A DNA stretch of 64,000 nt from Gemmatimonadales bacterium (GCA_044229445.1 JBGASX010000012.1:4671-68670); one strand, 5' to 3'; shown: positions 3,983 to 24,310, numbered from the stretch's first letter. Numbers and translations: made by a program. Notes: generated by a model not told the origin, from the letters alone.

Positions 3983-5464
3983 ATGCCATCGATCCTCGCC
4001 CTCGATCAGGGCACCACCGGCAGTACCGCGCTCGTCATTCACCAGGACGGGCGCATCCTCGGCCGCGGGTATCGCGAGTTCACTCAGTTCTTTCCGCGGC
4101 CGGGCTGGGTGGAGCACGATCCGGAGGAGATTCTCCGGGTAACGGTGGAGGCCGCGCGCGAGGCAATCACTGCGGCCGGCGAGATGCCCACCGGGGTGGG
4201 GATCACCAATCAGCGGGAGACCGTCGTCCTCTGGGACCGCGCCACGCTCCGTCCCGTGGCGCCCGCGATCGTCTGGCAGGACCGCCGCACCGCGGAGCGA
4301 TGCCGCGAACTGAAGGCAGCCGGTTGTGAGGCGATGATCCGGGAACGTACCGGGCTGCTTCTCGATCCCTACTTCTCCGCGACCAAGCTGGAACTGCTGC
4401 TTCGGGATCCCGAGTCGAGGCGCCGAGCCGAACGGGGAGAACTCGCGGCGGGGACGATCGACACCTGGCTCATCGCGCGACTGACCGGTGGGCGCGTCCA
4501 CGTCACCGACCATACCAACGCCTCCCGGACCCTGCTGTACGGACTCGCGTCGCGGGACTGGGATCCCGCGCTGCTGGATCTCTTCGGCGTGCCGAGAAGT
4601 GTGCTGCCCGAGATCGTCCCGTCGGCGGGAACGGTGGGTGAATCCGACGCGGAGTTCTTCGGCGCTGCGCTCCCGATCGCAGGGATCGCCGGCGACCAGC
4701 AGGCGGCGCTCTTCGGCCAGGGCTGCGTACGGGAGGGTCTCGCGAAGAACACCTACGGGACCGGGGCGTTCCTGCTCACCTATACCGGGCAGCACCGTCC
4801 CAGTCCGGGGGAGGGCCTGCTGCTGACGGCGGCCTGCGGCCCCCGCGGCGAGCCGGCCTATGCGCTGGAAGGAAGCGTCTTCATCGCGGGCGCTGCCATC
4901 CAGTGGCTGCGCGACGGCCTGGGCCTCATCGCGCGGGCGCACGAGACCGAGGCGCTGGCGCGTTCGGTGGCTGACACGGGCGGGGTCTATTTCGTCCCGG
5001 CCTTTGTGGGGCTGGGGTCGCCGCACTGGGAGGCCGAAGCCCGTGGGACGATCGTCGGACTGACCCGCGGCACGACGCGCGCCCACCTGGTCCGCGCGGC
5101 GCTGGAGGCGATGGCATTCGCCAGCGCCGATCTGCTCCAGTCGATGGCTGCGGCCTCGCATCTCACCGTCTCGGCCCTGAGAGTCGACGGCGGCGCGACG
5201 GCAAACGACTGGATGATGCAGTTCCAGTCGGACGTCCTCGGCGTGCCGGTCGAGCGGCCGGACAACGTCGAGACGACGGCCCTCGGCGCCGGGGCGCTCG
5301 CGGGGATCGCGCTCGGGGTATGGCCGGCGATCGATGCCTTTCTCGCGGGCCGGGTGTTCACGCGGTTCGAGCCCGGGCTCGACCCGGCGGGGCGCGAGGA
5401 GGGCTGGCGTGGCTGGCGTCGGGCGGTTCACGCGACACTCGCCTGGGCGAGGCATCATCCCTGA
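3983..5464 (+). CDS. glpK: glycerol kinase
   Basis: 493-aa ORF with FGGY-kinase/GlpK motifs: ILALDQGTTGS, GWVEHDPEEI, GITNQRETVVLWD, AGDQQAALFGQGC, VDGGATANDWMMQFQSD. Confidence 0.92.
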   Translation: MPSILALDQGTTGSTALVIHQDGRILGRGYREFTQFFPRPGWVEHDPEEILRVTVEAAREAITAAGEMPTGVGITNQRETVVLWDRATLRPVAPAIVWQDRRTAERCRELKAAGCEAMIRERTGLLLDPYFSATKLELLLRDPESRRRAERGELAAGTIDTWLIARLTGGRVHVTDHTNASRTLLYGLASRDWDPALLDLFGVPRSVLPEIVPSAGTVGESDAEFFGAALPIAGIAGDQQAALFGQGCVREGLAKNTYGTGAFLLTYTGQHRPSPGEGLLLTAACGPRGEPAYALEGSVFIAGAAIQWLRDGLGLIARAHETEALARSVADTGGVYFVPAFVGLGSPHWEAEARGTIVGLTRGTTRAHLVRAALEAMAFASADLLQSMAAASHLTVSALRVDGGATANDWMMQFQSDVLGVPVERPDNVETTALGAGALAGIALGVWPAIDAFLAGRVFTRFEPGLDPAGREEGWRGWRRAVHATLAWARHHP

Positions 5465-5558: not shown

Positions 5559-7181
5559 TCAGAAGCGCCAGGTCAGGCTGCTGTAGAAGAGCGTGGTCGT
5601 GAACCCGGGACTCTTCTCCCGCTGGCCGGACAGCGACAGGAACCAGCTGCGCGCCAGACTCACGTCGAGGTCGAGCCCATACCATGTGATCGTGCTGCTG
5701 GGCGGACTGTTGTGCGGGTTCCGGTCCTTGCGCAGGCCGCCCTCGAGGTCCACATGAATCGGCTGCCACGGATCCGCTCCCAGTCGCAGCACGTAGATCT
5801 CGCCGCTGTTCTTGAGCGAGAAACCGGTGCTGTCCGGGCTGGCATGGCTCTGGTACCAGGTCGCTCGGCTCGTCACACTGAGGTGCAGGGGCGTGAACCG
5901 GTCCAGTCCGAAGGTCCCGGTGTAGGACGTCGCCTTCCCCGCACCGGCGCCGTCCGAGAAGCGGACGTCGCCCGAGACACGCGTGCGATGCCCCATCAGC
6001 GAGAGTCCGCCCCAGACGCCCTGACGGTAGGCATCGTCGAAGGCGATCGCGGGATTGGTCGCGTCCCGATAGAGCCGCACGCTGCGGCGGTTGTCGTAGC
6101 CGCCGTTGAACGAGAGCCAGCTCGCCGGCCGAACGGCGCCATTCAGGTAGGTGCTGGTCGGCGAGATGGAGTTCTCACCAAGGGAAACCTTCCACGGCCG
6201 GTAGTAATCCACCTCCTGCAGGGCATACAGCGACACCACCCGGCTGCTCACGCTGGCCTGTGCGAAGGCAAACTCGCGGTTGGATTTCCCGCCCGCGTAG
6301 GAGCCGACCGCGCCCGTCGTGAAGGACCACGGGATTCCGCGCCCGGCCTTGTTATGCAGCTGGACGTATCCGCCGAAGTCCTGGATCTCCTTCGAGAATC
6401 CGAGGTTGACCTTGTCCGGCTCCACGCCACCAAACGCGCCGAAGGTCAGGTGCGACCCCCCGACCTCGACGAGGGCGCCGTCGAAAAGGCTCACCCAGGT
6501 GACGGCGGTGAGATACTGCCGTCCGGCCGCCATGCGGAACCGGTCCCCGGGCGCGTTCCAGAGCAGGGCGGCCTGATACACCCGCGTGTGCCCATCCACG
6601 GCACTCGAGCCGTCCGAGCGGGTCGCCGCGGTGCGTCGGGTCCGCAGGTCCACCGCCAGTCCGAATGGTGATCCCCCCAGTTCGCTGCCATCGAGGCGCA
6701 GGTCGAGGGACGGCTGATTGAACCCGCCGCTGTTCGGGGTGGTCTGGGAGAGGAGGTAGCGGCCACCGACGCGACCGTGAAGCCCCGGTCCGCTCAGCCG
6801 GTGGGGGCGTGATCGTGCCCTCGCGAGGGTCGCCGGATCGCCGCGCTTCGCCGACGCCGACGGGGTGAATCGCACCAGGTCGCCCACCGCGATGTCGGTA
6901 GCCCCGCGAACCACCTCGCAGGAGGACTGTCGTGAAGAGAGGTACACCACCTTGAGGGTCGCGGCGGTGGAATCGTGCCGGATCACCGACAGCTCCTGGC
7001 CCTCCACCAGGCCGTCGGTGCGCCCCGCGCTCACATAGATCGAGGTGCCGGAGATGTACGTGACACTCGCGCTCAGGACCGAACTGGTGTCCTGGGCGGC
7101 GCTCGTCGAGGTGAGGCCGATGCCGAATAGGATGGCCGCGCACGCGCCCCGAAGGGCTGTCTGCATCGGTAGTCTCCGCAT
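5559..7181 (-). CDS. outer-membrane beta-barrel protein, last gene of cytochrome cluster 1
   Basis: The track ORF 5559..8036 is trimmed to the in-frame ATG at 7181 (MRRLPMQTALRGACAAILFGIGLTSTSAAQD, a signal peptide), because its upstream part overlaps the 17-haem gene. The body shows alternating hydrophobic/polar strands rich in Y/W/G/S/R, and the C-terminus LTWRF is a typical barrel beta-signal. Confidence 0.65.
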   Translation of the reverse strand: MRRLPMQTALRGACAAILFGIGLTSTSAAQDTSSVLSASVTYISGTSIYVSAGRTDGLVEGQELSVIRHDSTAATLKVVYLSSRQSSCEVVRGATDIAVGDLVRFTPSASAKRGDPATLARARSRPHRLSGPGLHGRVGGRYLLSQTTPNSGGFNQPSLDLRLDGSELGGSPFGLAVDLRTRRTAATRSDGSSAVDGHTRVYQAALLWNAPGDRFRMAAGRQYLTAVTWVSLFDGALVEVGGSHLTFGAFGGVEPDKVNLGFSKEIQDFGGYVQLHNKAGRGIPWSFTTGAVGSYAGGKSNREFAFAQASVSSRVVSLYALQEVDYYRPWKVSLGENSISPTSTYLNGAVRPASWLSFNGGYDNRRSVRLYRDATNPAIAFDDAYRQGVWGGLSLMGHRTRVSGDVRFSDGAGAGKATSYTGTFGLDRFTPLHLSVTSRATWYQSHASPDSTGFSLKNSGEIYVLRLGADPWQPIHVDLEGGLRKDRNPHNSPPSSTITWYGLDLDVSLARSWFLSLSGQREKSPGFTTTLFYSSLTWRF

Positions 7182-7243
7182 GCGCCTCCCGGTGCGGGGC
7201 TCGCCCCGCTGCTCGCGCTGAGGTCGTTCCAGGGTGCTCGGCA

Positions 7244-8686
7244 TCAGTCGCAGGTCCCCTGGTTGAGGTAGGTGCAGGTCGGACGGTGATGGTGGGTGCT
7301 GCACGTCGACTGCTTGAGGTCGCTGGTCACATGGCAGGTGGCGCACACGTTGTTCGCACCCTGATGCCGGGCACTGAACATCGAGTGGTACTGGGTCGGC
7401 AGCGTGACGCCCGCGTCCCAGGCCACCGTATTGCTGGAGCCGGAGTGGCAGGTGATGCAGGTCTGCGGCCAGTTGTACTGCGTGTGGCTCGGGTTCGCCG
7501 CACTGGTGTAGTCCGCCAGATGGCACACCTGGCAGGTGGTAAGCGTCCCCTGGGTCCCCTTGTAGACACCATTGGTGTGGCACTTGTCGCAGGCCGTCGT
7601 GATGTGCGTGCCGGTAAGCTGGAACGCAGTGGTGCTGTGCTTGAACGTCGACGGGACCCACGCGTTCGTGTTGTGACAGTTCGTGCACGTCGTGACGAAG
7701 CTCGGCAGCGTGTGGGCCGGGTTGGGGACGGGCGCGCCGTTGGTGCCGTTGTAGTCCTTCTGGTGACAGCTGAAGCAGTCGGTCGGCTTGCCCTTGTAGA
7801 CGCCGTCCGCATGGCACTGGACGCAGTTCAGCGCCTGGTGGCCACCCGTCAGCGGGAACTGGCCCTTCGAGTGATCGAAGGCGGCATTCCAGTCCGAGGT
7901 GTTGTGGCAGAGCACGCAGTCCGTGCTGAAACCGCTCGAGCTGTGCGGCGGAGTCGCCGTCGCGTTGTACTTGTCCAGGTGACAGCTCACGCACGTTGTG
8001 CCGAGTGGCGTCTGGAAGTTCGAATTCTTGTGACACTGGTCGCAGGCCGTTCGGGCATGCACCCCCGTCAGCGGGAAGCCCGACGCGTCATGATTGAATC
8101 GCGCCGTCGTCCACGCGGTCACGCTGTGACACTGGGTGCAATCCTGCGGGAAGTTGTTCTGGAGGTGGTCGGGCGCCTTCGCGGCCAGATAGTTCGGCCG
8201 GTGGCAGCTGATGCAGTCGGCCGCCCGGGCGACGAACTGCAGATGCCCCTGTTCGGTCGGGGCGTGGCACGCCGTGCAGTCCGTCGCGAGGTGGGCACCC
8301 TCCAGCGGGAACCGGGTCAGCTGGTGGGCCCGGGTCATCCGCCCGCGGTCGATGAAGCTGCGGGTGGTATGACACTGGACGCAATCGGCGCCCAGTTCGC
8401 CCCGGTGCGCATCCTCATGGCAGGAGGCGCAGGTGCTCGGCGTGCCCTTGAAGTCGAGGGACTGGTGACAGGCGCGGCAGGCCGCGGTCGTGTGCGCGCC
8501 GATGAGGGAGAAACCGAACTTGTTGTGATCGAACGACCGGCTGATCGTCACGTGGGTCCACCCTTCCGAGCGGTGGCACGCGATGCAGTCGACCTTCAGC
8601 TCGCCATGCGGGGAGCGGGTGCGCTCCTGGGCCGCGAGGGGCCCCGCGAGGAGCAGGGCGAGGCCAACGAGGATCAGTCGCTTCAT
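7244..8686 (-). CDS. periplasmic multihaem c-type cytochrome, 17 CXXCH motifs
   Basis: 480-aa ORF with signal peptide MKRLILVGLALLLAGPLAAQ. I count 17 CXXCH, arranged in repeated modules of the form F-x-H-x(3-4)-F-x-L-x-G-x-H-x(4)-C-x-x-C-H. The start overlaps the upstream stop (ATGA at 8683-8686). Confidence 0.9.
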   Translation of the reverse strand: MKRLILVGLALLLAGPLAAQERTRSPHGELKVDCIACHRSEGWTHVTISRSFDHNKFGFSLIGAHTTAACRACHQSLDFKGTPSTCASCHEDAHRGELGADCVQCHTTRSFIDRGRMTRAHQLTRFPLEGAHLATDCTACHAPTEQGHLQFVARAADCISCHRPNYLAAKAPDHLQNNFPQDCTQCHSVTAWTTARFNHDASGFPLTGVHARTACDQCHKNSNFQTPLGTTCVSCHLDKYNATATPPHSSSGFSTDCVLCHNTSDWNAAFDHSKGQFPLTGGHQALNCVQCHADGVYKGKPTDCFSCHQKDYNGTNGAPVPNPAHTLPSFVTTCTNCHNTNAWVPSTFKHSTTAFQLTGTHITTACDKCHTNGVYKGTQGTLTTCQVCHLADYTSAANPSHTQYNWPQTCITCHSGSSNTVAWDAGVTLPTQYHSMFSARHQGANNVCATCHVTSDLKQSTCSTHHHRPTCTYLNQGTCD

Positions 8687-10716
8687 CGGTTCTCCTTGCC
8701 GCCGTGGCAGCTCTCACACTTTCCCGACAGGGGCCGGAAGATCAGCCGCTCCGAGTGCCCACCCGACACATCGTTCACATGACAGCGATTGCACGGCACG
8801 TTCTCGTGCGCGCCCTTCAGCGAGAAGGACGCATCCCGGTTGTGGTCGAATCGGCCCGCCGGCGAGAAGGCCTCGCTGGTGTGGCAGGCCTCGCACCGCC
8901 CGCCGTCCGCCCGGCTGGCGAACTGATTGCCATGCGGGTTCTCGTGGCAGTCGGCGCACGCCGTCTTTGCCGAGAACCGGAGTTCGGCGAAGCTCGCCCC
9001 ACCCGCGATGAGCGACGAGCGTTTCGGTGTGCCCGCCATCTGCTTCATGTCCGCGTGGCAGGCGATGCATGGCGTCGCCCCATGCGCTCCCTCGAGGGCC
9101 AGCCCGAAGTCCTTGTGGGTCGCGATCGTCGCCGTCGAGGGCCGGAACGCCCGCGTATCGTGGCAGGCGAGGCATCCCTGGCTCTTCATGCGTGCGCCGC
9201 CGGCCGAGAAGCGACCCTTGTGCGGATCCACATGGCAGGCGGCGCACTCGACCTGCGTGACCTTGAAGAGGATCCCGGCCTTACCCAGCACCGTGGTCGT
9301 TGTGAGTGGGGGCAGCCCCTTCCGGTCGCTGCCGTGACAGGCGCGGCATTCGATGTCGCCATGCCGGCCGTCGAGCGCCAGCTTCAGCCTGGCGTGCGCG
9401 GAACGGTCGAAGGTGCTGGGCTTCCATCCGGCCACGCCGTGACAGGCGGCACAGTCGCCGCGGTCAGCCCGTGCACGGAGCTGCCCTCCATGATCATCGG
9501 CATGGCAGTCGAGACATGTAGCCGCCGCGGGCCGCATCACCACCTTCGAACTGCCCCATTTCGGTACGGCCGCCGTGCCGGCGTCGCGTCGATGGCAGGC
9601 CGCGCACTTGACGGTCCCGTGCTTTCCTTCAAGCGGATACTTGGCCCTGGCGTGCTGCTCGACGGTGAAGGTCGAGGGCACAAAACCGGCGACCGTGTGG
9701 CAGGCATCGCATCCCACGATCTTCCCCGCCAGGGTCGCCGTTCCGTTATGCGCGTCCTTGTGGCAGGAGGCGCAACTCTGGAAGGCCGGCTTCTTCAGGG
9801 CCGCCGTGGAGAAATCGCCGTGGCAGTCGGCGCACCGCACGGTGGCATGTTCGCCCTTCAGCGGGTACTTGGTCCGGTCGTGATTGAAGCTGGACCGGTC
9901 GATCTGCTGGAAGCTCCGTGTCGAATGGCAGCTCGCGCAGTTGGCGCCGAATTGCCCCTTGTGGACGTCCTCGTGGCAGTCCGCGCAGCTCTGGTGAGGC
10001 ACCGGCTTGTAGACCGGTACCGGGCGCCCCTGCGCGTCGGTCTTCGGGGAGAGCCGCGGAGCCAGATGGCACTTCTCGCACTTCACGTCCGCATGCTTGT
10101 TGGTCAGCGGATACGCGGTGCTGTCGTGGCTGAACCCGGGAGTCACCGTCCATTTGCCGGTATCGTGACACTTCACGCAGTCAGTGCCGAGCGCGCCGCG
10201 ATGCACGTCGGCATGACAGCTGGTGCACGTCGTCTCGAGGCCGGTGTATCCCTGGCCGGTCTTCCGCGCGGACAGCTTGGCCGCATCGGAGACCTGGTAC
10301 TTCGGCTGGTGGCACTCGGTGCACTTCGTGTCGGCATGGGTCTGCGTCAGCGGCCAGCCCGCACGTCGGTGGTCGAACCGCGCGGCGCTGCCGTCCGGCC
10401 ACTTGACCATGCTGAACGTCTCACCGGCGTGATCCGGATGGCAGGAGGCGCACGGGGTGCCCTTGGCCTCCGTGCTCGCGTGGTAGCCCCGGCCACGATC
10501 GATCAGCCAGGCGAGATCCTTGTGACAGCTCTCGCAGCGGGTGGCCATGCCTTCCTTGCCGCCGCCATGGCACTTGGTGCACTTGAGCGTGCCCTCGAGC
10601 TCACGGTGCGCACGTGCCAGCGGCCCGGGGGAGACCTGTCCCCCTAGCCGACTGTTCGAGACCGCACTGAACCCGAGTGCCAGCATGATCACCAAGCCGA
10701 TCGATCGGAATTGCAT
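8683..10716 (-). CDS. periplasmic multihaem c-type cytochrome, 23 CXXCH motifs
   Basis: 677-aa ORF with signal peptide MQFRSIGLVIMLALGFSAVS. I count 23 CXXCH and 7 repeats of the (F/T)-x-H...PL-x-G-x-H...CxxCH module. The start overlaps the upstream stop by 1 nt (TAATG). Confidence 0.9.
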   Translation of the reverse strand: MQFRSIGLVIMLALGFSAVSNSRLGGQVSPGPLARAHRELEGTLKCTKCHGGGKEGMATRCESCHKDLAWLIDRGRGYHASTEAKGTPCASCHPDHAGETFSMVKWPDGSAARFDHRRAGWPLTQTHADTKCTECHQPKYQVSDAAKLSARKTGQGYTGLETTCTSCHADVHRGALGTDCVKCHDTGKWTVTPGFSHDSTAYPLTNKHADVKCEKCHLAPRLSPKTDAQGRPVPVYKPVPHQSCADCHEDVHKGQFGANCASCHSTRSFQQIDRSSFNHDRTKYPLKGEHATVRCADCHGDFSTAALKKPAFQSCASCHKDAHNGTATLAGKIVGCDACHTVAGFVPSTFTVEQHARAKYPLEGKHGTVKCAACHRRDAGTAAVPKWGSSKVVMRPAAATCLDCHADDHGGQLRARADRGDCAACHGVAGWKPSTFDRSAHARLKLALDGRHGDIECRACHGSDRKGLPPLTTTTVLGKAGILFKVTQVECAACHVDPHKGRFSAGGARMKSQGCLACHDTRAFRPSTATIATHKDFGLALEGAHGATPCIACHADMKQMAGTPKRSSLIAGGASFAELRFSAKTACADCHENPHGNQFASRADGGRCEACHTSEAFSPAGRFDHNRDASFSLKGAHENVPCNRCHVNDVSGGHSERLIFRPLSGKCESCHGGKENR

Positions 10717-11696
10717 TACCAGAACCAGGTCGCACCCATCGCGACGACGACCCCGACGTGCACCAGGACCGCCACGAGGGCGGTCAGGGCGAAGGGGCGA
10801 TGCGCCACGTGCCAGAATCGGAAGATGTCCCGCGTGGCCTCGAGCATCCGGGCCTGCTGAGTGAGCGCCATCTCCCGGCTGGCGAGTCGCACGACCTCGC
10901 GCAGGGCACGGCGGTCGAGCTGCTGGCCGCCGGGGCGATTCGCGCAGATGCGCCGGAGGGCGCGCGCCGCCCGCCGACGGGCGAGGTCGTCCTTGATCAT
11001 CAGGACGACCGTTTTCATGAAGCCCGCGCCTTCGTGAGGCGTCGGGTCTGACCGCAGGACGGACTCGACCTGGGCGACCGGCAACCCGGATGTCGCGGCG
11101 ACCGAGGCCATCAGTTCATGCCGCTCGGCGGCGATTTCTTCCGCCGTGAGTTCGAGACCGCTCGCGCTACGCGGGATATGGACGTAGAGGTAGCGGCCGG
11201 CGATCCCGCTCAGCGCGACGATGATCATCGACCAGTATCCCAGTCCGATCACGCCATCGAATCGCCAGGCGGCGTGGATGGCCGCAAGAAAGGGCAGGAC
11301 CAGCGCGGTCGCGACGTGGACGTCCATCCACTTCGACATCGCGCCCGTCCAGGCGAGCCAGCGGTGTTTCTTGCGGAAGGGGTAGAGCCACAGGAACACG
11401 AAGATCAGGACCGAGAGGATGCCCGCACTCTGGCCGATGTAGCCGGACGGTCGGAGCCAGGGATGCAGCGGGCTGCGAACCTGATCTCCAGGCGAAGCGA
11501 AGTAGTACCCGCTGCCTGCGATCGTCACGCCGAGGAGAATGGCGACCGATACGAAGACCGGGGTCAGGGTCTTGTCTCCCCGGGCCTTGGGCTTGGCGGC
11601 GGCTGGGTCGGGGCGGCCGGGCGGCTGCACTTTCAGCGACTGGGTCGCCGAGGGGGATGCGTCGGGGCGGATGCTGGCCAGGCTGGACCGGGTCAT
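10716..11696 (-). CDS. polytopic membrane protein with two H-x13-H helices (ferric-reductase-domain-like di-haem b candidate)
   Basis: 326-aa ORF with about 5 hydrophobic helices. Helix MDVHVATALVLPFLAAIHAAW and helix WHVAHRPFALTALVAVLVHVG each contain His-x13-His. It is the first gene of cluster 1. Haem b binding is inferred, not shown. Confidence 0.6.
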   Translation of the reverse strand: MTRSSLASIRPDASPSATQSLKVQPPGRPDPAAAKPKARGDKTLTPVFVSVAILLGVTIAGSGYYFASPGDQVRSPLHPWLRPSGYIGQSAGILSVLIFVFLWLYPFRKKHRWLAWTGAMSKWMDVHVATALVLPFLAAIHAAWRFDGVIGLGYWSMIIVALSGIAGRYLYVHIPRSASGLELTAEEIAAERHELMASVAATSGLPVAQVESVLRSDPTPHEGAGFMKTVVLMIKDDLARRRAARALRRICANRPGGQQLDRRALREVVRLASREMALTQQARMLEATRDIFRFWHVAHRPFALTALVAVLVHVGVVVAMGATWFW

Positions 11697-11941
11697 CGTG
11701 TGCTCGATGGTGCTCGAATTGTCTGGTTTTGATGAGCGCTGTCACGCCTTGTTACGGCACAAACCGTGCGAGACGCTAGTGGCGGAACCGCAAGCTTGGC
11801 TGGGAGTTGTGGAGCGCTAATCCGTTGGTGGGAATGGCCTGGAGGTCAGGTGTGAGACACCTCACCCCATTCACCAAGCGGTACAACGCATTCCACGTGT
11901 AATGAAATGTTGCACTTCATGAACGCCGGTGATTTTGCCAA

Positions 11942-13279
11942 ATGCTCATCTACCTTGCCTTCGCAGTATTGCTTGGCGTCGCGCTGGTCGCCCAGGTCCG
12001 CGGACTCAAGAAGCGTGAGGCAACCGCCCGGGCATCCGCGGAGCGCGCCGGCCTGACATCCTCAGGGCCGCGCGCCCAGCACCCGCACATCGATGTGAGC
12101 TGGTGCATCGGCTGCGGGGCCTGCGTGACGGCCTGCCCCGAAGGCGACGTGCTGGCGGTCATCGGGGGCAAGGCGGCACTCATCAACGGCCCCAAGTGCA
12201 TCGGGCACGGGCTCTGTGCCGATGCCTGTCCCGTCGGCGCCATCGAGATCGTGATGGCTCCCCCGAGCATGATGGCGGACATGCCCGCTCTCTCTCCCCA
12301 GTTCGAAACCAGCGTCCCGAACCTCTTCATCGTCGGGGAACTCGGCGGGCTCGCGCTCATCAAGAACGCCGTCAACCAGGGACGCGACTGCATCGACCAC
12401 ATCGCCGGACTGGTGCCGCAACTCCGCCGGCGGCGGGTGGGCGATGTCGTCGACGTCTGCGTGGTCGGCGCCGGCCCGGCAGGATTGTCGGCCTCGCTGC
12501 GCGCGGTGGAGAAGGGCCTGAGCTATGTCACGCTGGAGGCGGAGGACTTCGGGGGAACAGTTTCCAAGTATCCCCGGCAGAAGCTCGTCATGACGAGCCC
12601 CGTCGAGTTTCCGCTCTCGGGCAAATTCTCCAAGCTGGAGATTGGCAAGGAGGAACTGCTCGGCTTCTGGAAGAAGATCGCGCAGAAGGCCGGCCTGAAG
12701 ATCCGGACCCAGGAGCGGGTGGAGCACATCCAGCGCGAACCGGATGGGGCCTTCACCATCGAGACGACGAAGGGACGGTATCGGGCGCTGACGGTGGTGC
12801 TCGCCATCGGGCGGCGGGGCAGTCCCAACAAGCTCGGTGTGCCTGGGGAGGAACTCGATAAGGTGATGTACAGCCTGATCGAGGCGGAGCACTACAAGGA
12901 CAATCACATCCTCGTCGTCGGCGGGGGAGACAGCGCCATCGAGGCGGCCATGGGACTGGCCTATCAGAAGGGCAACAAGGTCACCCTGTCGTACCGGAAG
13001 GATGTGTTCAGCCGGCTCAAGGAACGCAACAACCAGCGAATCCGGGAGTGCATGCGCACCGGCAAGGTCACGGTGATCTTCAACTCCGAGCCGCTCGAGA
13101 TCCGGGAGAAGTCGGTGATCCTCAAGGTGCAGGGCGGCAAACGTGAGGTCCCGAACGACTACGTCTGGGTCTTCGCGGGAGGGACACCGCCGAACGCCTT
13201 CCTCCAGAAGATCGGGGTCCAGATCGGCCGGGTGGACCTGAGCGCCTCGGCGGCGGCCGAGGCGCGCGAAGTGGCCTGA
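11942..13279 (+). CDS. membrane-anchored 2x[4Fe-4S] ferredoxin-domain / FAD-NAD(P)-binding oxidoreductase
   Basis: 445-aa ORF with an N-terminal hydrophobic anchor (LIYLAFAVLLGVALVAQV), two ferredoxin motifs (CIGCGACVTACP, CIGHGLCADACP) and two Rossmann motifs (VCVVGAGPAGLS, ILVVGGGDSAIEAA). Confidence 0.8.
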   Translation: MLIYLAFAVLLGVALVAQVRGLKKREATARASAERAGLTSSGPRAQHPHIDVSWCIGCGACVTACPEGDVLAVIGGKAALINGPKCIGHGLCADACPVGAIEIVMAPPSMMADMPALSPQFETSVPNLFIVGELGGLALIKNAVNQGRDCIDHIAGLVPQLRRRRVGDVVDVCVVGAGPAGLSASLRAVEKGLSYVTLEAEDFGGTVSKYPRQKLVMTSPVEFPLSGKFSKLEIGKEELLGFWKKIAQKAGLKIRTQERVEHIQREPDGAFTIETTKGRYRALTVVLAIGRRGSPNKLGVPGEELDKVMYSLIEAEHYKDNHILVVGGGDSAIEAAMGLAYQKGNKVTLSYRKDVFSRLKERNNQRIRECMRTGKVTVIFNSEPLEIREKSVILKVQGGKREVPNDYVWVFAGGTPPNAFLQKIGVQIGRVDLSASAAAEAREVA

Positions 13280-13323: not shown

Positions 13324-13749
13324 ATGAAGGCTGGTCACAAGTTCATCATCGGGGCGGGAATCATCGTGGGCGCCGTCAGCGTCCTGATGGCCCAGGGTGT
13401 GAAGCAGTTCGGACAGTATTCGATGAAGCCTTCCGAACTCGCCCAGCGCGTCGAGCGGGATCCGAGCCTGTACGATACCGGGCTCAAGATGGAGGCGAAG
13501 GTCGTGCCGGGCTCGGTCACCCGGGACGCGGCCAGCCAGACGATTGATTTCAAGGTCAGCGATGGCGTGCAGACCTATGCCGTGAGCTATCGGGGGCTCG
13601 CGCCCGATACCTTCACTGACCAGAAGGACATCGAGGTCGTCGTCGAAGGCCGGCTTGGGCGCGATGGCGTCTTTCGAGCCACGACGCTCCTCGCCAAGTG
13701 CGGCTCCCGCTACGAAGCGAAGTACAACGAGCAGGGCAAGCAGGCCTAG
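13324..13749 (+). CDS. ccmE: cytochrome c maturation haem chaperone CcmE, CXXXY variant
   Basis: 141-aa ORF with an N-terminal anchor, an OB-fold-like body aligning to CcmE (KVVPGSV.RD...), and LLAKCGSRYEAKY where canonical CcmE has LAKHDENY. A GGAG motif lies upstream of the ATG. Confidence 0.85.
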   Translation: MKAGHKFIIGAGIIVGAVSVLMAQGVKQFGQYSMKPSELAQRVERDPSLYDTGLKMEAKVVPGSVTRDAASQTIDFKVSDGVQTYAVSYRGLAPDTFTDQKDIEVVVEGRLGRDGVFRATTLLAKCGSRYEAKYNEQGKQA

Positions 13750-13835: not shown

Positions 13836-15269
13836 CTAGCGGGGGTCGGGAATACTCCGCCCATGGCACGCGGCGCACATCTGGGGGTTCCGCCGCAGCA
13901 GGCGGGCCGCATCGAACCCCGGGCCGTGCGGATCGAAGCGGCCACCTGCCTGCGCCGAGTGGCACTTGAGGCAGTCCCGCTCGCTGTGGCAGGTGACACA
14001 GGTCTCGAGTGATTGCCGCGCCGCCTGCCCATGTCCAGCGATGAACCCCGGCTTGTTTTCGTGGAAGCCGCCCTGCAGGGGGCCGCGCGGCGTCAACCCG
14101 GTTTCCTGGTGGCAGGTGCTGCAGAACTGCCCCTGATTGTGGCACTCCGAGCAGTCCGACTCGCGGTTGTACGCAGCCGCGGGGTGACTGGTGAGGAAGC
14201 CGCCGGGGTGATAGCTCCCGTTGTTGCTCGCGTTGGGCCGGTGGCACTCCAGGCACTCGGTCCGAGCATGGCAGGCGCTGCACGATCTCGAACCGCTGCT
14301 CGCCTGGAGTCCGTGGCGGTCCACGAAATCCTTGCCGTGGCTCAGCGGCATCTTGCGGACGACGTGGGCCCCCTCCGCGCGTCCCGGGCCCCCGAGGGCC
14401 ATCCCGCTCGCGACGGAGGGCTGGGCGCGGTGACAGGCGGTGCAGCTCTGCTGGGTGTGGCAGGCCGCGCAATTCTTCGGGGAGTGCCGCACCATCTCGC
14501 CGTGGCGGGACTGGAACCGATCCTCCCCATGGTTCGCCGGGGCCTTGAGTTCTTCCTTGAGCGCGAGCGACCTCGGGTCGGGCTCCAGCGCTTGAATGAG
14601 CGCAAGTTCCGGGGCATTGACGTGGCACTGTGAACAGAAATCCCGGGCATGGCAGACCGCACAACTCTGGGCCACGCTTGCCCTGGAGCCGGCCGGCGGC
14701 TTCGCCTGCACCCCGTGTCCCTTCGCCGTCATGAATCCCGGTGCGTCGTGCGAGGCGGGTTTCGCGAAGCTGGCGACGCGCTCGGTGGTCAGGCCCGGAG
14801 CCTTGGCGAGCGGTAGATGACAGGTCGCACACGCCGTATCCGGCGCCGCGACGTGCTTGGCGCGAATGCCGTGACAGGCCAGGCACGGCTCCGCCTTCGC
14901 TGGCTGCACCGACATCCAGGCTCGGCCGTCAGGCATGTGGCACTCGGCACACACCAGCACCGAATCGGCACCGAGCTTGTGCGTGGATTCCCGCGCATGC
15001 TCGACATGCGTGAAGCGGAGGTTGGAGACGCGCGGCGCGCTCGGGGCTTCCCATGTGACCCGCTTCTCCACGGTTCCGTCGTGGCAGGTGGCGCACGATT
15101 CGGCGGTCGGCCAGACCGATCGGGTGGTATCCCGGATTCCGGCATGACAGCCTTCGCAGCCCGGGAATACCTTCGCGTGCTTCACATGGTCGAACTTCTC
15201 CATCGGCTGCTGGGCGGAGGCGGATCCACTCAGCAACCCGAGGGCGAGCACGAGGAAGGCGGCTCTCAT
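13836..15269 (-). CDS. periplasmic multihaem c-type cytochrome, 16 CXXCH motifs
   Basis: The track ORF is trimmed to the ATG at 15269 (MRAAFLVLALGLLSGSASAQQ, a signal peptide), which overlaps the upstream stop as ATGA. I count 16 CXXCH. Confidence 0.9.
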   Translation of the reverse strand: MRAAFLVLALGLLSGSASAQQPMEKFDHVKHAKVFPGCEGCHAGIRDTTRSVWPTAESCATCHDGTVEKRVTWEAPSAPRVSNLRFTHVEHARESTHKLGADSVLVCAECHMPDGRAWMSVQPAKAEPCLACHGIRAKHVAAPDTACATCHLPLAKAPGLTTERVASFAKPASHDAPGFMTAKGHGVQAKPPAGSRASVAQSCAVCHARDFCSQCHVNAPELALIQALEPDPRSLALKEELKAPANHGEDRFQSRHGEMVRHSPKNCAACHTQQSCTACHRAQPSVASGMALGGPGRAEGAHVVRKMPLSHGKDFVDRHGLQASSGSRSCSACHARTECLECHRPNASNNGSYHPGGFLTSHPAAAYNRESDCSECHNQGQFCSTCHQETGLTPRGPLQGGFHENKPGFIAGHGQAARQSLETCVTCHSERDCLKCHSAQAGGRFDPHGPGFDAARLLRRNPQMCAACHGRSIPDPR

Positions 15270-16759
15270 CGTCCGATCGCCCGGCGCCGGGCCGGCGGCA
15301 GGGTCAGCATGTCGGCGGCCTTGGAGCCGAACAGCCATGAGAGGCTCATCCGGAGGCGTGTCTGGGACCAGGTGAAGGCGGAGGCGTCTGGCCGACGCCG
15401 GTCTTCATCGTAGCGGACCGCGCCGGCGGCGAGGCGAAGCCGGTCCGAAAAGTGGTAGTCGGTCGAGACACCGTACCATGTCATGCGCGGGTCGTTGTAG
15501 CGGAGTTCCAGTGGGCGCACCAGCGTGCCGCCCTCGACCGTCAGCGACAGCGCCGGGCGCGGTCGCCAGGTCAGATGGCCATCGGCCCCGGAGGATGAGG
15601 CGCCAGGGCCGAACTCGCGATGATAGACCGCGTCGAAGCTCCACCGCGGAATGAACGTGAGCGTTGTGCCGGCACTCCAGCGGAATCCCCGATCCTGGAG
15701 GCCCGCGCCGAGGGGCGCGGAGAACGCCGCGTCGGCATACCAGTAGCGCTCCCCGCTGGTGCGGAAGTCGACGCCCGCGATCGGCTGCACCCAGAACGAG
15801 CCGTTTACCGCCGAATACGGCACGGGACTGAAGGCCCCCCACAGGGTCCAGAGGTCGAAGAAGGGCCGGTAGCGGCGAATGCCTCCCGCGGCGCCCCATT
15901 TCCGCTGATTGACGCGCAGGGTCAGATCGGCCGAACCCCACCAACCGAACGCGAGGTCGTATTCACCGCCACCGCTCAGCGTCCAGCCATTGAAGGGCCG
16001 GAAGGTGGCGGTGACCGCCGCTCGCTCCGAGACAAGATTCCTCGGGTCACGATCGACCTCACGCTGATACTCGACGCGGGCATCCACTCGCGGTCCCTGC
16101 CACTCGAGCGCCGCGCCGGCGACGATCTGCCGCCGTGTAGGCTGGAACTTGTCGAGGGGGTTGATGGCATCACTGGTCACCGGGAGCGCGGTCGCTCGAG
16201 CGAGACCCAGGCCGACGAATCCGATGGCGGCCAGGCCGGCCTTCGGCAGCCGGTAGGTGAAGCGCCCGCCATCGTAACCGGTATACCCCAGACGGCCACG
16301 CTCGATCTGGCGGCCCAGACGGCCATTGATGCGGGCGCCGGCGTATTCGGCATAGCCTTCGAAGAGCTGTACCGGCGTCTGATTGCCAGGCCAGATGTCG
16401 GAGCCCCTGATGTCGACTCCGAGGCGGGCGTTGGCATGGAGGCTGACGCCGCGGATGCCGAACCCCCAGGCGGTGACGTCCGCGCTGGTCGTCAGCGGCG
16501 CCGTGTGCCGTTGAGGACCGGGGCGGTAGTAGTGACAGAAGTTGCTTCCCGCCGGACAGGTGAGGGCGATTCCGTTGGGCGTCTGCAGGCCGCCTCCCGG
16601 GGCAGGCAGGGCCTGCGACAGCGGCAGGGAGTCGTAGCTCAGTCCGCGATACGCTGCCGTCTGCATCCGGGCGTCGAGGCGCACGAGGTACTGCTGTGCG
16701 CCCGCGGCGTTGGTCCCGGCGAGCACGAGGCCGGCCGCGAGGCCGAGGGTGCGCCTCAT
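15266..16759 (-). CDS. outer-membrane beta-barrel protein of cytochrome cluster 2
   Basis: The track ORF is trimmed to the ATG at 16759 (MRRTLGLAAGLVLAGTNAAGAQQ, a signal peptide), which overlaps the upstream stop as ATGA. Composition is strand-like and rich in aromatics/Gly/Arg, with a near-terminal MSLSWLF motif and an N-terminal Cys pair (CPAGSNFC). Confidence 0.6.
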   Translation of the reverse strand: MRRTLGLAAGLVLAGTNAAGAQQYLVRLDARMQTAAYRGLSYDSLPLSQALPAPGGGLQTPNGIALTCPAGSNFCHYYRPGPQRHTAPLTTSADVTAWGFGIRGVSLHANARLGVDIRGSDIWPGNQTPVQLFEGYAEYAGARINGRLGRQIERGRLGYTGYDGGRFTYRLPKAGLAAIGFVGLGLARATALPVTSDAINPLDKFQPTRRQIVAGAALEWQGPRVDARVEYQREVDRDPRNLVSERAAVTATFRPFNGWTLSGGGEYDLAFGWWGSADLTLRVNQRKWGAAGGIRRYRPFFDLWTLWGAFSPVPYSAVNGSFWVQPIAGVDFRTSGERYWYADAAFSAPLGAGLQDRGFRWSAGTTLTFIPRWSFDAVYHREFGPGASSSGADGHLTWRPRPALSLTVEGGTLVRPLELRYNDPRMTWYGVSTDYHFSDRLRLAAGAVRYDEDRRRPDASAFTWSQTRLRMSLSWLFGSKAADMLTLPPARRRAIGR

Positions 16760-18819
16760 CGTGCCCTCCCCGAACGCAGCAACCGTGGCTGATAGTCCTG
16801 CGGATGCGACTGCAGGTGGCACTCGGTGCATTCGCGCGGGCCGTAGTGGTCGACCTTCTGGTCGTGGCAGGCGAGGCAGAACGAGCGCGTCGGTACGAGG
16901 GAGGTAATCTTGGCGGTCGCGTGGCAGGCGTCGCATGCGACGTGCGCCTGGGCCGGCAGCGCGTGGGCCTGCGTGATGGAGGTCGTCCGGTGGCAGGTGG
17001 CGCAATCACGCCCGGACTTGTGATGATCCACATGACACCCCGTGCAGGTCGCCGCCGAATCCACCGGTGGCAGCGACACGACTCCGGCATGACACGCCCG
17101 GCAGTCGAGATCCGTGTGCGCCGAGTGGCGGAAGGTGACCGTGCGCTCGCGGGAGGGCTTTCCGGCCGCGGCGATCCGGACGCTCACCGCGTTGGAGGCC
17201 GGGAGTTCCTCCCTGGCATGACAGGACTTGCAATCGCTCTGTGCCGGCGCCTGATGATGACAGATCTGGCAGCCACGCGGCGCTTCGAACGTGACCTTCT
17301 TGCCCGAAGAGGTCACGTGGCAGGTGAGGCAGGCCAGTTTCTTATGTCGGGTGTGTGAGAAGGTGTCGCTCGGCAGGGCGGTGCGGGTGCTCAAATCCCG
17401 CGTGGGAGGGTCTGCACCAGGCGGGGCATCACCTTTCACCTTGCTCGGCCGCTCGAGGCTCGGAAGCTCCTGGAGCGGCGCCATCGACTGCTTGAGGGCC
17501 TTGAGGGTATCGAAGGGTTGTGGCGGCTTCACGCGCGAGTGACTGCGTTCGCGGACCGCATTGTGGCATCCGGTGCAGTCGCTGGCGTCCACGCGCGCCG
17601 CGTGCGGCACGTGGCAGAGCGTGCACTGCTCCTGCTTGCCGCGATGCTGGGCGCCGACGTGGAAGGGGACCTTCTTGTAATCGGCGTGACACCCCTCGGA
17701 AGCGCAGGATTTCCGCGTCTCACCGACGGTCTTCTGGGCATGGGGATTGTGGCACATGCCGCAGGTGCCGTTGTGCGGATCGGCGCCCGGCGCGAAGCTG
17801 GGAATCAGCTTCTCCATGTCGTGGCACGAGAGGCACTGCTTCAGCGCCGGCCGCAGCGCCCCGGCGGCGGAGTCACGGGTGGCGAGCGCAGCCACCGGCT
17901 TGGTGAACTGATGGCAGACGATGCAGTGCAGGTCGGTCTGCCCCTGCATCTTGCCCAGCCGGATCCGGGTCTCGTCCGTGAGATGGCAGCCCTTCTGCAC
18001 GCAGGTGGTGTCCGCGGGAAGGAAACGATGGGCCGTTCTCGCGTGACAGGTCAGGCATTCGACCTTGCCCTTGAGCGCCGAGGAATCCGATTCGAGGTGC
18101 GTCCGATGCCCGGCGGTGGCCGCGATCGCCTGCCAGGTCTCCTTGGCGGCACCGCGCACATGACACCGCTCGCAGGTCGCCCGCGGCACTCGCGCGTGGG
18201 GCGGGATCCGCTCGTCCCGGACACCAGACATCCAGAAGATGAGCTTCACTCCCTCCTTGAGCGGCTTGAGCGGGTGACAGGTATGGCAGCTGATGGAATC
18301 GTGCTTGCCCTCGAGCCGGGGGACCAGGGTGTAGTCGCCCGTGTCAGGCACGACCCACTTCTGCCCGCTGGCGATGAAGATGTGGCACCCGTTGCAGAAG
18401 CGCTTGTCGGTCTCGACGAACTTGTAGCTGCCATACCCCGCGCCCGCCACGCCGGCAACGGCCAGAAAGGCGGCGGCGACGAGGCCGAACTTGACCGAGG
18501 CGCTGCGCGTCGCCAGCCACTCCAGGATGCTCCGCCGGTTGTGCCACAGCGCTCGAAGGATGACGAAGGCGATGGCGGCAGCGATGAGCGCGCCCATCCA
18601 CATCACCCAGGGCTGCTTCTGGAAGAGCCACTGGATGATGGGGGTGACCCGGTCGCCGAGCAGGGTCTTGTCGACGGTGGAGTCGGCGGGATGCATCGGC
18701 ATCTGCGACGGCAGCGCTGCGGTACTGTCGTGGATCGCCTGGAGGGAGAATACACCCGCCCCGGCAAGCGAGAGCTTGCCGGGGCGGGTGGTATTACCTG
18801 TCGGAGAAACGAGCATCAA
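16756..18819 (-). CDS. membrane-anchored NapC/NirT/CymA-like multihaem cytochrome, 18 CXXCH + 2 CX4CH
   Basis: 687-aa ORF with two N-terminal hydrophobic helices followed immediately by FCNGCH, the arrangement seen in NapC/NrfH-type quinol dehydrogenases. It then has 17 more CXXCH plus CVQKGCH and CASEGCH. Confidence 0.85.
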   Translation of the reverse strand: MMLVSPTGNTTRPGKLSLAGAGVFSLQAIHDSTAALPSQMPMHPADSTVDKTLLGDRVTPIIQWLFQKQPWVMWMGALIAAAIAFVILRALWHNRRSILEWLATRSASVKFGLVAAAFLAVAGVAGAGYGSYKFVETDKRFCNGCHIFIASGQKWVVPDTGDYTLVPRLEGKHDSISCHTCHPLKPLKEGVKLIFWMSGVRDERIPPHARVPRATCERCHVRGAAKETWQAIAATAGHRTHLESDSSALKGKVECLTCHARTAHRFLPADTTCVQKGCHLTDETRIRLGKMQGQTDLHCIVCHQFTKPVAALATRDSAAGALRPALKQCLSCHDMEKLIPSFAPGADPHNGTCGMCHNPHAQKTVGETRKSCASEGCHADYKKVPFHVGAQHRGKQEQCTLCHVPHAARVDASDCTGCHNAVRERSHSRVKPPQPFDTLKALKQSMAPLQELPSLERPSKVKGDAPPGADPPTRDLSTRTALPSDTFSHTRHKKLACLTCHVTSSGKKVTFEAPRGCQICHHQAPAQSDCKSCHAREELPASNAVSVRIAAAGKPSRERTVTFRHSAHTDLDCRACHAGVVSLPPVDSAATCTGCHVDHHKSGRDCATCHRTTSITQAHALPAQAHVACDACHATAKITSLVPTRSFCLACHDQKVDHYGPRECTECHLQSHPQDYQPRLLRSGRAR

Positions 18820-23693: not shown

Positions 23694-24310
23694 TCCAGAA
23701 TCGTCGTGCCTTCCTGTCGGGCGCTGCCGTCGCCGTCTTCGGCGGTGCCGTCGCCGGGCGGCTGACTGGCCAGGAGCCGTCGCTGCCGCCGCAGGCCGAG
23801 ACCGGGTCGCTGCGCGATCCCGAGTCCGCGGGGCGCTCGCAGGAGCGGGCGACTCACCGGGACAACGATCCGTTCATCACCGCCATCGAGAAGCGGATCC
23901 AGTGCACCTGCGGGTGCACGCTCGACGTCTATACCTGCCGCACCACGGACTTCACCTGTACGTACTCGCCCGCGCTGCACAAGGAAGTGCTCGCGCTCCA
24001 GGATGAAGGCAAGAACGCGGAGGAGATCATCGCCGCGTTCGTGGCCAAGTACGGCGAGAAGGTGCTGATGGCGCCCAAGCCGGAGGGATTCAATGTCGCC
24101 GGGTACGTGGTGCCCGGCCTGCTGATTCTGCTGGTCGGAGGCGTCATGCTGGCGATTCTGCAACGGCGCGCGCGATTGAGCCGGCCGGCGGTGCTGCCCG
24201 GGGCACCGGCGATGCCGACCGGCGCGGCCGGGGCCGTGGTCTCGGCACCGCCCGCATCGGCCGAGGAACTCGAGCGACTCGCACGCGAATTACGGGAGAT
24301 GGACCAGTAA
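23690..24310 (+). CDS. ccmH: CcmH/NrfF-family protein with atypical cysteine motif
   Basis: 206-aa ORF with a twin-Arg-like signal (NRRAFLSGAAVAVFGG). The segment LQDEGKNAEEIIAAFVAKYGEKVLMAPKPEG plus a following TM helix match the CcmH family layout. The Cys motif is QCTCGCTLDVYTC rather than RCxxC. Confidence 0.7.
   Translation: MIQNRRAFLSGAAVAVFGGAVAGRLTGQEPSLPPQAETGSLRDPESAGRSQERATHRDNDPFITAIEKRIQCTCGCTLDVYTCRTTDFTCTYSPALHKEVLALQDEGKNAEEIIAAFVAKYGEKVLMAPKPEGFNVAGYVVPGLLILLVGGVMLAILQRRARLSRPAVLPGAPAMPTGAAGAVVSAPPASAEELERLARELREMDQ

Follow-up and report, generated by a model that had tools for sequence, protein, structure and literature searches.

A 64,000-nucleotide stretch of DNA from a Gemmatimonadales bacterium (GCA_044229445.1, JBGASX010000012.1:4671-68670), referred to at its full length as the window, contains four minus-strand genes (g1 to g4) for an inner-membrane protein (IMP), two secreted multihaem c-type cytochromes, and an outer-membrane barrel, together with a divergent fifth gene for a membrane-anchored ferredoxin-flavoprotein (Table 1). 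We consider it very probable that the cluster is an envelope-spanning cytochrome conduit of the PCC3 type and, with less assurance, probable that the flavoprotein is the cytoplasmic partner of that conduit. The PCC3 architecture and the IMP motifs were already known; the fifth gene and the occurrence of the module beyond the Proteobacteria are new here.

An earlier note on this DNA had described g1 to g4 as four co-oriented, tightly coupled genes. The coordinates and both overlaps proved exact on the minus strand: g1 and g2 overlap as TAATG on the coding strand (CATTA on the plus strand at 10714-10718), and g2 and g3 overlap as ATGA (TCAT on the plus strand at 8683-8686). These four genes stand as members of the unit, but its size had to be revised, as the divergent flavoprotein gene also belongs to it. 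In the first three homologous loci, a gene for an ~450-residue protein with Fer4 and Pyr_redox_3 domains lies directly upstream of the IMP-encoding gene in divergent orientation, as in the window. A scan for the IMP motif pattern across one genome per GTDB species gave at least 599 pattern matches, and at least 577 of these stretches encode IMP relatives; the best 80 loci, which were fetched, all come from Gemmatimonadota, Eisenbacteria, or Acidobacteriota. When 87 loci with an IMP homologue were searched with the five window proteins, the flavoprotein was present in 83 (within 600 bp in 80) and all five genes were present in 65, with most of the others cut by contig ends. The synteny of the original four genes is therefore conserved as well.

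Gene order within the module varies. With F for the flavoprotein, I for the IMP, C1 and C2 for the first and second cytochromes, and B for the barrel, the order F<-I-C1-C2-B (F divergent upstream) occurs in 18 Gemmatimonadales loci, while I-F-C1-C2-B on one strand occurs in 35 loci from Gemmatimonadaceae, Eisenbacteria, and some Acidobacteriota. C1-C2-B-I-F is found in two loci of Terriglobia/Acidobacteriota (L081 and L083; variants in L080 and L082), and I-C1-C2-B-F in a Zixibacteria genome and one further contig; F-I-C1-C2-B is also among the observed arrangements. Retention of the same genes in shuffled order in different phyla speaks strongly, by comparison, for a single functional unit.

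The taxa with the module are Gemmatimonadota, Eisenbacteria, Acidobacteriota, Zixibacteria, and Bacteroidota, the last represented by Emticicia oligotrophica DSM 17448, a cultured aerobe. Here, the full module resides on the ~100-kb plasmid pEMTOL02 (L084, NC_018749.1, 81299-89995) in the order ccsA, IMP, "NAD(P)-binding domain-containing protein," 23-CXXCH cytochrome, 40-CXXCH cytochrome, and 538-residue g4 homologue; a gene for a lipoprotein-like protein with a GW-dipeptide domain trails it. Identities to the window proteins are 26% for the IMP, 41% for the flavoprotein (E = 2e-116), and 32% for the 23-CXXCH cytochrome. The plasmid location suggests that the module can move horizontally. The IMP family itself extends further: a profile search of 1.84 billion representatives matched 2412 clusters formed at 50% identity, 1314 of them at E <= 1e-10. 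Named members include Krumholzibacteriia, Calditrichota, Zixibacteria, and Schekmanbacteria, annotated as "hypothetical protein" throughout, and the best 120 matches of a distant-member profile comprised Calditrichota, Zixibacteria, and Schekmanbacteria and no Proteobacteria.

When the IMP and the 23-haem protein served as tblastn queries, PLSDB returned only Emticicia and weak short-IMP matches. Plasmid pWTT2411 of Methylophaga pinxianii (L085, NZ_CP095734.1, 7088-10442) carries a three-gene mini-module in which a short IMP homologue (252 residues, E = 7e-10) is encoded between a 612-residue reductase with transmembrane (TM) segments and FAD_binding_6/NAD_binding_1/2Fe-2S domains and a 7-haem cytochrome of 254 residues; ccmABCDEF adjoins this set. 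The arrangement is that of the porin-less class in Supplementary Table 6 of He et al. 2017 (PMC5566968). Thus, the IMP family is paired on one side with flavo-Fe-S reductases of the NAD(P)H type, which have two unrelated folds, and on the other with c-type cytochromes, as would be expected if it relayed electrons across the membrane from a cytoplasmic source.

The description of g1 in the earlier note as a five-helix membrane protein with two H-x13-H helices agrees with the AlphaFold2 model (pLDDT 87.6, pTM 0.81), which places TM helices at residues 44-60, 86-110, 120-141, 148-172, and 285-319, with H127/H141 in the third and H299/H313 in the fifth. The full motifs are W123-x3-H127-x13-H141 on TM3, W295-x3-H299-x13-H313 on TM5, and SGxxG (S163-G164-I-A-G167) on TM4; between TM4 and TM5 lies a cytoplasmic insert of about 110 residues with four helices (185-283). 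Among 78 representative IMP relatives (22 to 58% identity to g1), there is no variation at H127, H141, H299, H313, W295, G164, or G167 and almost none at W123 and S163. The charge distribution places the N-terminus, an RKKHR loop, and the Arg-rich insert on the cytoplasmic side; given that topology, the pair H127/H299 lies towards the cytoplasm and the pair H141/H313 towards the periplasm. As modeled, this geometry suits two stacked bis-His haems, and we propose that g1 is a dihaem-b transmembrane electron relay, with haem b binding predicted from the conserved motifs.

The sole Pfam match of g1 is below threshold (Ni_hydr_CYTB, E = 0.0035), and the same search gave no Ferric_reduct (PF01794) match. 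Foldseek comparison of the g1 model with the PDB, with NOX, STEAP, and MsrQ included, likewise returned no significant fold match (best E = 0.55). On this basis g1 was not assigned to the FRD/NOX fold, and the haem b assignment therefore rests on motif conservation. Weak Pfam matches among the 78 relatives were to DUF4405 (25/78, best 5.7e-6), Ferric_reduct (13/78, best 1.5e-4), and Ni_hydr_CYTB (8/78). Two distant IMP homologues have a precomputed PF14358 (DUF4405) match that g1 itself lacks; DUF4405 has been shown experimentally to bind haem b (PMC11334425). These matches suggest a relation between the IMP and DUF4405 at the superfamily level only. The term "FRD-like," which the earlier note applied to the input protein, can be kept at that level, given the weak matches in relatives and the H-x13-H pairs on TM3 and TM5; it does not extend to a profile match, the six-TM fold, or a PDB match.

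The two secreted cytochromes were confirmed to contain, at the coordinates given earlier, the 23 and 17 CXXCH motifs previously counted. In a six-frame scan of the 64 kb, CXXCH was confined to five cytochrome open reading frames (ORFs; g2, g3, and three of a second cluster described below) and four isolated matches; the density of haem motifs is thus not a product of chance. The g2 protein consists of repeated c7-type three-haem units (Pfam Cytochrome_C7 in seven stretches, 2.9e-28) at a density of ~29 residues per haem. The g3 protein contains a segment resembling domain II/IV of MtrC/MtrF (PF22113, 56 bits against a cutoff of 30), and its composition is 12.7% Thr and 36% Thr, Ser, Ala, and Gly combined. 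Non-motif histidines (25 in g2, 23 in g3) at least equal the haems in number in both proteins, which fits bis-His electron transfer haems. Across orthologous loci, the first cytochrome has 23 haems (51 loci) or 20 haems (15 loci), while the second has anywhere from 6 to 58. A steady first count and a variable second count fit a fixed periplasmic spacer joined to an environment-facing, fast-evolving terminal part. We accordingly propose g2 as a periplasm-spanning haem wire and g3 as a barrel-inserted and/or surface-exposed terminal cytochrome. The 10 haems of MtrA extend over ~80 Å (PDB 6R2Q). Scaled from MtrA at ~8 Å per haem, 23 haems would reach ~180 Å, or about one periplasm width. The same span argument has been made for PCC3 proteins with 21 to 27 haems (PMC9900912).

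In the AlphaFold2 model of g4 (pLDDT 79, pTM 0.71), 22 strands (135-539) come after a small periplasmic beta domain at the N-terminus (36-105), and W538, R539, and F540 of the C-terminal beta-signal are invariant or nearly so in homologues. The earlier assignment of g4 as a signal-peptide protein of barrel type ending in LTWRF is in keeping with this model. An identical NCBI protein (P0001) is 535 residues long, a length that fits a g4 start at the second Met (7166). All 603 homologues of g4 are annotated as "hypothetical." When the barrel was compared with the MtrB/PioB and porin families by searching Pfam and NCBIfam, no MtrB_PioB or other match was found at E <= 0.1. Foldseek retrieved generic large barrels only (PapC usher as the best, with a TM-score of 0.36-0.40, as well as OprD/Occ and AlgE), and MtrB was absent from the top 50 PDB matches; a specific fold link between g4 and MtrB was consequently rejected. 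Some g4 homologues are 650 to 840 residues long, exceeding g4 by 100 to 300 residues, and two of the long ones (P0039 and P0040) show a weak FlgT_C (PF16538) match in their N-terminal domain. In g4, the N-terminal beta domain may belong to the FlgT_C fold class, and a periplasmic docking or plug function is conceivable. In a subset of Gemmatimonadales loci (L007, L018, L019, L020, and L050), a barrel ~36% identical to g4 and a 34- to 37-haem second cytochrome are encoded on the opposite strand, downstream of the IMP and 21- or 23-haem genes (with an extra 19-haem ORF in L018), an arrangement that looks like cassette exchange of the outer-membrane half.

The product of the fifth gene comprises, in order, an N-terminal TM anchor, a K/R-rich stretch, a 2x[Fe-S] ferredoxin domain, and a TrxR/YpdA-like FAD- and NAD(P)-binding domain. 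It matches Fer4 families and Pyr_redox_3 (8.5e-47) in Pfam, and its YpdA-like and TrxR-like matches in NCBIfam are all below cutoff (174 bits for YpdA against an equivalog cutoff of 340). Dinucleotide-binding motifs of the GxGxxG/A type, for FAD and NAD(P), are found at 176 (GAGPAG) and 327 (GGGDSA), and there is no redox-active CxxC outside the Fe-S motifs. The protein thus resembles TrxR-like/YpdA flavoproteins in its two dinucleotide-binding domains, and YpdA/FNR types are likewise devoid of a redox-active disulfide; it differs from them in its N-terminal ferredoxin fusion and TM anchor. No basic or twin-arginine stretch comes before the N-terminal hydrophobic helix, and a K/R cluster comes after it (MLIYLAFAVLLGVALVAQV-RGLKKRE), a pattern kept in 27 of the 31 loci with an aligned N-terminus and in Emticicia. 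By the positive-inside rule, an anchor followed by such a cluster places the catalytic part on the cytoplasmic side. The Fe-S motifs are CxxCxxCxxxCP and CxxHxxCxxxCP, and the His of the second, which in ferredoxins is normally Cys, is present in 71 of 72 loci. Judging from this pattern, the Cys3-His motif may hold a His-ligated [4Fe-4S] or [3Fe-4S] cluster at the electron exit site.

We propose that the flavoprotein acts as an NAD(P)H dehydrogenase that feeds the conduit from the cytoplasmic face, and the conservation of its gene makes NAD(P)H, and not quinol, the likely source of electrons. Only one match in the plasmid collection, that of Emticicia, also covers the ferredoxin domain; the others are ordinary flavoproteins of the YpdA type, encoded in unrelated surroundings. 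What looked like IMP-flavoprotein fusions occurred in three long representatives (P0267, P0257, and P0336). P0267 and P0257 were rejected as frameshift artefacts, as the IMP C-terminus is out of frame, lacks the TM5 motif, and continues into the following gene, and as both are singletons, each from one contig. The flavoprotein of these two also carries an insert of zinc-ribbon-like type (CxxC...CxxC), placed between TM anchor and ferredoxin domain and absent from the window protein.

Clusters of the PCC3 type have been predicted from genomics in Alpha-, Beta-, and Gammaproteobacteria (He et al. 2017, PMC5566968; for Gallionellaceae, PMC9900912). Their parts are a porin, an "extracellular" cytochrome of very variable haem number, a "periplasmic" cytochrome (median of 21 haems), and an IMP of ~300 residues with five TM helices, SGxxG on TM4, and Wx3Hx13H on TM3 and TM5 (PMC5566968). 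Compared by published description and not by sequence, the window set has every one of these parts as well as the IMP motif set. The PCC3 periplasmic cytochrome has 21, 24, or 27 haems in repeats at 26 to 27 residues per haem, close to the 23 haems and ~29 residues of g2; the second cytochrome has 10 to 63 haems in PCC3 and 6 to 58 in window-type loci; and for the Leptothrix PCC3 porin 22 strands are predicted, the number seen in the g4 model. Sideroxydans lithotrophicus ES-1 has PCC3 clusters at Slit_0867-0870 and Slit_1446-1449, one of them with a 17/21-haem pair that compares with the 17/23 pair of the window (PMC8788666). The order in Sideroxydans CL21 (extracellular multihaem cytochrome, porin, periplasmic multihaem cytochrome, IMP) differs from that in the window (IMP, 23-haem, 17-haem, barrel), although gene order is a weak criterion of membership, as it varies widely within the window family. 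There are two further differences: PCC3 is described from Proteobacteria, whereas the window family occurs in the five other phyla listed above, and the ferredoxin-flavoprotein gene, nearly always present in the window family, is not reported for PCC3.

The earlier note had seen in these genes the parts list of a porin-cytochrome conduit, and this holds: a dihaem-b-type IMP, a long haem wire, a second multihaem cytochrome, and a large barrel are all encoded. Its further suggestion of a distinct transenvelope conduit survives for the transenvelope parts and overstates the distinctness, given the PCC3 precedent (PMC5566968) and the ES-1 17/21 pair (PMC8788666). The claim that the composition departs from MtrCAB was correct, as the barrel has no MtrB_PioB match and the scores with the DmsE/MtrA model TIGR03508 (62 bits for g2 and 25 bits for g3) are far below the cutoff of 192.

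In the proposed mechanism, the membrane-anchored flavoprotein would oxidize NAD(P)H at its FAD on the cytoplasmic face and pass the electrons on via its two Fe-S clusters. The IMP would then move them across the inner membrane through two bis-His haems b (H127/H299, then H141/H313), the 23-haem cytochrome would span the periplasm, and the 17-haem cytochrome, in or on the 22-strand barrel, would deliver them to an extracellular acceptor (for example, minerals of Fe(III)/Mn(IV), humic matter, or another cell). The net effect would be outward flow around the quinone pool, as if a NOX/ferric reductase had been divided among several proteins and lengthened to cross a diderm envelope. The analysis shows the genes with their motifs, cofactor-binding signatures, and topology signals, the barrel size, the synteny across phyla, and the haem-number patterns; from these we infer haem b binding, the flavoprotein-IMP contact, the identity of the cytochrome that sits in the barrel, the direction of flow, and the acceptor; respiration, redox balancing, and reductive iron acquisition would be candidate physiological roles. 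With NAD(P)+ at -320 mV, inward flow from Fe(II)-type donors against the inside-negative potential is strongly uphill and outward flow is downhill, which argues for the outward direction. Taken as a whole, we judge the chances of this NAD(P)H-fed, outward, quinone-independent scheme to be evenly balanced.

In the classical PCC3 model, electrons would instead pass between the outside and the quinone pool via the dihaem-b IMP, possibly inward from Fe(II), Mn(II), or other donors, and the flavoprotein would be an accessory, such as a side branch or a regulatory or repair reductase. We regard this as unlikely for the window family, even though the architecture and IMP motifs match and quinone coupling was proposed by analogy with the cytochrome b of bc1 and hydrogenase (PMC5566968). 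PCC3 is also found in known Fe(II) and Mn(II) oxidizers, and in iron-oxidizing cells of Sideroxydans CL21, one IMP gene alone rose, that of PCC3 copy 2. An accessory role is nevertheless hard to square with a flavoprotein that adjoins the IMP in 83 of 87 loci, in several orders, and in at least five phyla, and the sole complete ferredoxin-fused homologue in the plasmid collection belongs to the module. Moreover, no quinone-binding family signature was found in Pfam/NCBIfam searches of the window proteins or in a Pfam search of the 78 IMP relatives, the ES-1 PCC3 clusters are down-regulated on Fe(II) (PMC8788666), and inward flow would reach NAD(P)+ only with energy input.

Several points weigh against the NAD(P)H-fed scheme. 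The flavoprotein gene is not nearby in L039 and L043 despite 10 kb of flanking sequence, which also speaks for an accessory role, and with the apparent fusions recognized as frameshift artefacts, there is no Rosetta-stone support for the flavoprotein-IMP link. The g1 model is confident and yet without a PDB fold match, the only Pfam match of g1 is below threshold, and a quinone site in the IMP may exist, in line with the coupling proposed by He et al. (PMC5566968). For the outer half, g3 lacks a lipobox, and the analysis found no route by which it would be secreted to the surface. Finally, the module and PCC3 are both known from genomic prediction only, and the hosts (soil Gemmatimonadales and aerobic Emticicia) are not known metal reducers.

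The missing lipobox and surface-export signal of g3 would also suit a purely periplasmic system, in which the flavoprotein and IMP supply cytochromes that serve as an electron store or as donors to periplasmic reductases and the barrel is an ordinary porin or export channel. Porin-less clusters of a multihaem cytochrome, an IMP, and a redox protein exist (He et al. Supplementary Table 6; Methylophaga), so the input module can serve periplasmic cytochromes alone, and the Foldseek matches of the barrel (ushers, OprD/Occ, and AlgE) are generic. We nonetheless hold this reading to be improbable. The barrel family lies beside the cytochromes in every homologue locus inspected and is present in 65 of the 87 loci, Emticicia and Zixibacteria included; its 22 strands, the number predicted for the Leptothrix PCC3 porin, give it room for a haem wire. 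The second cytochrome carries a domain of the MtrC/MtrF type, and its range of 6 to 58 haems, against the steady 23 or 20 of the first, is as expected of a surface-exposed part on which the environment exerts selection. That the five genes are unrelated neighbors without a shared function in a cytochrome-rich genomic island, as the nearby ccm genes and the other, unrelated set of cytochrome and barrel genes in the window might suggest, is scarcely credible, since the TAATG and ATGA overlaps imply translational coupling, the Emticicia module resides on a plasmid in another genomic background, and the synteny of all five genes in 65 loci across phyla with rearranged order effectively refutes it.

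The proposed NAD(P)H-fed conduit shares features with several other systems. As in MtrCAB, MtoAB, and PioAB, a periplasmic multihaem cytochrome in a large barrel would meet a surface cytochrome, and g3 has the MtrC/MtrF-like segment. MtrCAB-type barrels, however, are of the MtrB_PioB family with 26 strands, whereas g4 falls outside that family and has 22; the window set also lacks a decahaem MtrA and a CymA-type quinol dehydrogenase, uses a single 23-haem bridge in place of diffusible periplasmic carriers, and has a flavoprotein/dihaem-b pair as its input. Geobacter Pcc consists of the octahaem OmaB, an OmcB-type lipoprotein cytochrome, and the OmbB barrel, which the haem numbers and missing lipobox of the window proteins do not fit. 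No Geobacter Pcc model reached cutoff in the Pfam/NCBIfam searches, in which no dedicated OmbB/OmaB model or sequence was compared.

On the input side, g1 can be compared with NOX/FRE, MsrQ, PepSY_TM, and DUF4405 proteins for its two H-x13-H pairs on the third and fifth helices, which would hold two stacked haems b across the membrane, and for the weak Pfam matches of its relatives. NOX/FRE enzymes further share with the proposed scheme a cytoplasmic NAD(P)H flavoenzyme as donor, an exit on the outer face, and independence from quinones. They differ in having six TM helices (five plus a cytoplasmic helical insert in g1), in their FNR-like dehydrogenase (a separate TrxR/YpdA-like polypeptide with a ferredoxin domain in the window), and in passing electrons directly to O2 or Fe(III), whereas the acceptor proposed here is a multihaem c wire. 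Flavin-based extracellular electron transfer (EET) in Listeria uses a dedicated Ndh2, demethylmenaquinone, EetA/B, and PplA. It resembles the window scheme in that a dedicated NADH dehydrogenase feeds an extracellular branch apart from aerobic respiration; it differs in being Gram-positive and quinone-dependent, with flavinylated lipoproteins instead of haems and no outer membrane component. The porin-less clusters (He et al. Supplementary Table 6; Methylophaga) have a homologous IMP (E = 7e-10), an NAD-binding flavo-Fe-S reductase, and a c-type cytochrome, but their IMP is ~190 to 250 residues long, their cytochrome has 7 to 10 haems, their reductase is of the FNR/2Fe-2S type, and they have neither a barrel nor a second cytochrome. 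The "EET1-4" clusters of peat Acidobacteriota/Verrucomicrobiota (bioRxiv 10.64898/2026.05.27.727921) encode 8- to 13-haem Mtr/Omc-like proteins and are not this module. A full-text literature search, which covered few subscription journals, found no paper on the module in Gemmatimonadota, Eisenbacteria, or Acidobacteriota or on the flavoprotein link, and the Caldithrix and Zixibacteria genome papers do not describe the module.

The window has ~68% G+C, and its proteins have close homologues in metagenome-assembled genomes of Gemmatimonadales. In the divergent intergenic region, one sigma-70-like site was found on the minus strand (11745-11718), with shuffled sequences giving as many; the promoter and terminator scan gave no signal above chance. 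Small, conserved-looking ORFs of 118 to 127 residues follow the module in L001 (11623-11979), L002 (11659-12042), and L087 (16481-16840). The window lacks such an ORF because glpK abuts the barrel gene. A second set of cytochrome and barrel genes (cluster 2, 13836-20529) was considered as a relative of g1 to g4 and rejected as a separate system, as no homology between the barrels could be detected (E = 0.2) and the cytochromes show only marginal similarity. An 8/18/16-haem ORF set adjoins the five-gene module in Gemmatimonadales loci L010, L016, L021, L045, and L055. The cytochrome maturation genes ccmE, ccmF, and ccmH flank the two window cytochrome clusters, and ccsA directly precedes the Emticicia module; such neighbors fit a heavy demand for haem attachment.

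Table 1. Genes and other features of the window, numbered from its first nucleotide
Feature	Position	Strand	Description
glpK	3983-5464	+	
g4	5559-7181	-	Outer-membrane barrel, 540 residues; signal-peptide-like N-terminus, C-terminus LTWRF
g3	7244-8686	-	Secreted c-type cytochrome, 480 residues, 17 CXXCH
g2	8683-10716	-	Secreted c-type cytochrome, 677 residues, 23 CXXCH
g1	10716-11696	-	Inner-membrane protein (IMP), 326 residues
Divergent intergenic region	11697-11941		245 bp, between the flavoprotein gene and the four-gene operon
Flavoprotein (fifth gene)	11942-13279	+	Membrane-anchored ferredoxin-flavoprotein, 445 residues
ccmE	13324-13749	+	
Cluster 2, cytochrome	13836-15338	-	16 CXXCH
Cluster 2, barrel-like protein	about 15266-16750	-	~490 residues, no Pfam/NCBIfam family
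Cluster 2, cytochrome	16756-18819	-	18 CXXCH, N-terminal TM segments
Cluster 2, cytochrome	18820-20529	-	8 CXXCH, lipobox-like LGAC
ccmF	21645-23693	+	
ccmH	23690-24310	+	

Clusters of the PCC3 type are among the commonest uncharacterized multihaem systems in environmental genomes, and the module described here is not confined to the Proteobacteria and has a nearly obligatory fifth component. We tentatively put forward, at somewhat short of even confidence, a widespread class of quinone-bypassing EET systems in diderms of at least five phyla, in which a ferredoxin-flavoprotein would dock on a new five-helix dihaem-b protein and feed a 23-haem wire and a surface porin-cytochrome. Proteobacterial PCC3 and the porin-less IMP clusters may form further branches of one superfamily with it, in which case PCC3-type systems would be electron-export or ferric-reduction devices and not Fe(II) oxidases. 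An NAD(P)H-type flavoprotein on the cytoplasmic face leads to the definite prediction of quinone-independent outward electron flow, and the presence of the module in the culturable aerobe Emticicia oligotrophica DSM 17448 makes this prediction directly testable by genetics and biochemistry. If it is confirmed, cytoplasmic NAD(P)H would be wired to the cell surface in a new way, and Gemmatimonadota, Acidobacteriota, and Eisenbacteria, which are abundant in soils and sediments, would gain a route to reduce minerals, humics, or partners.

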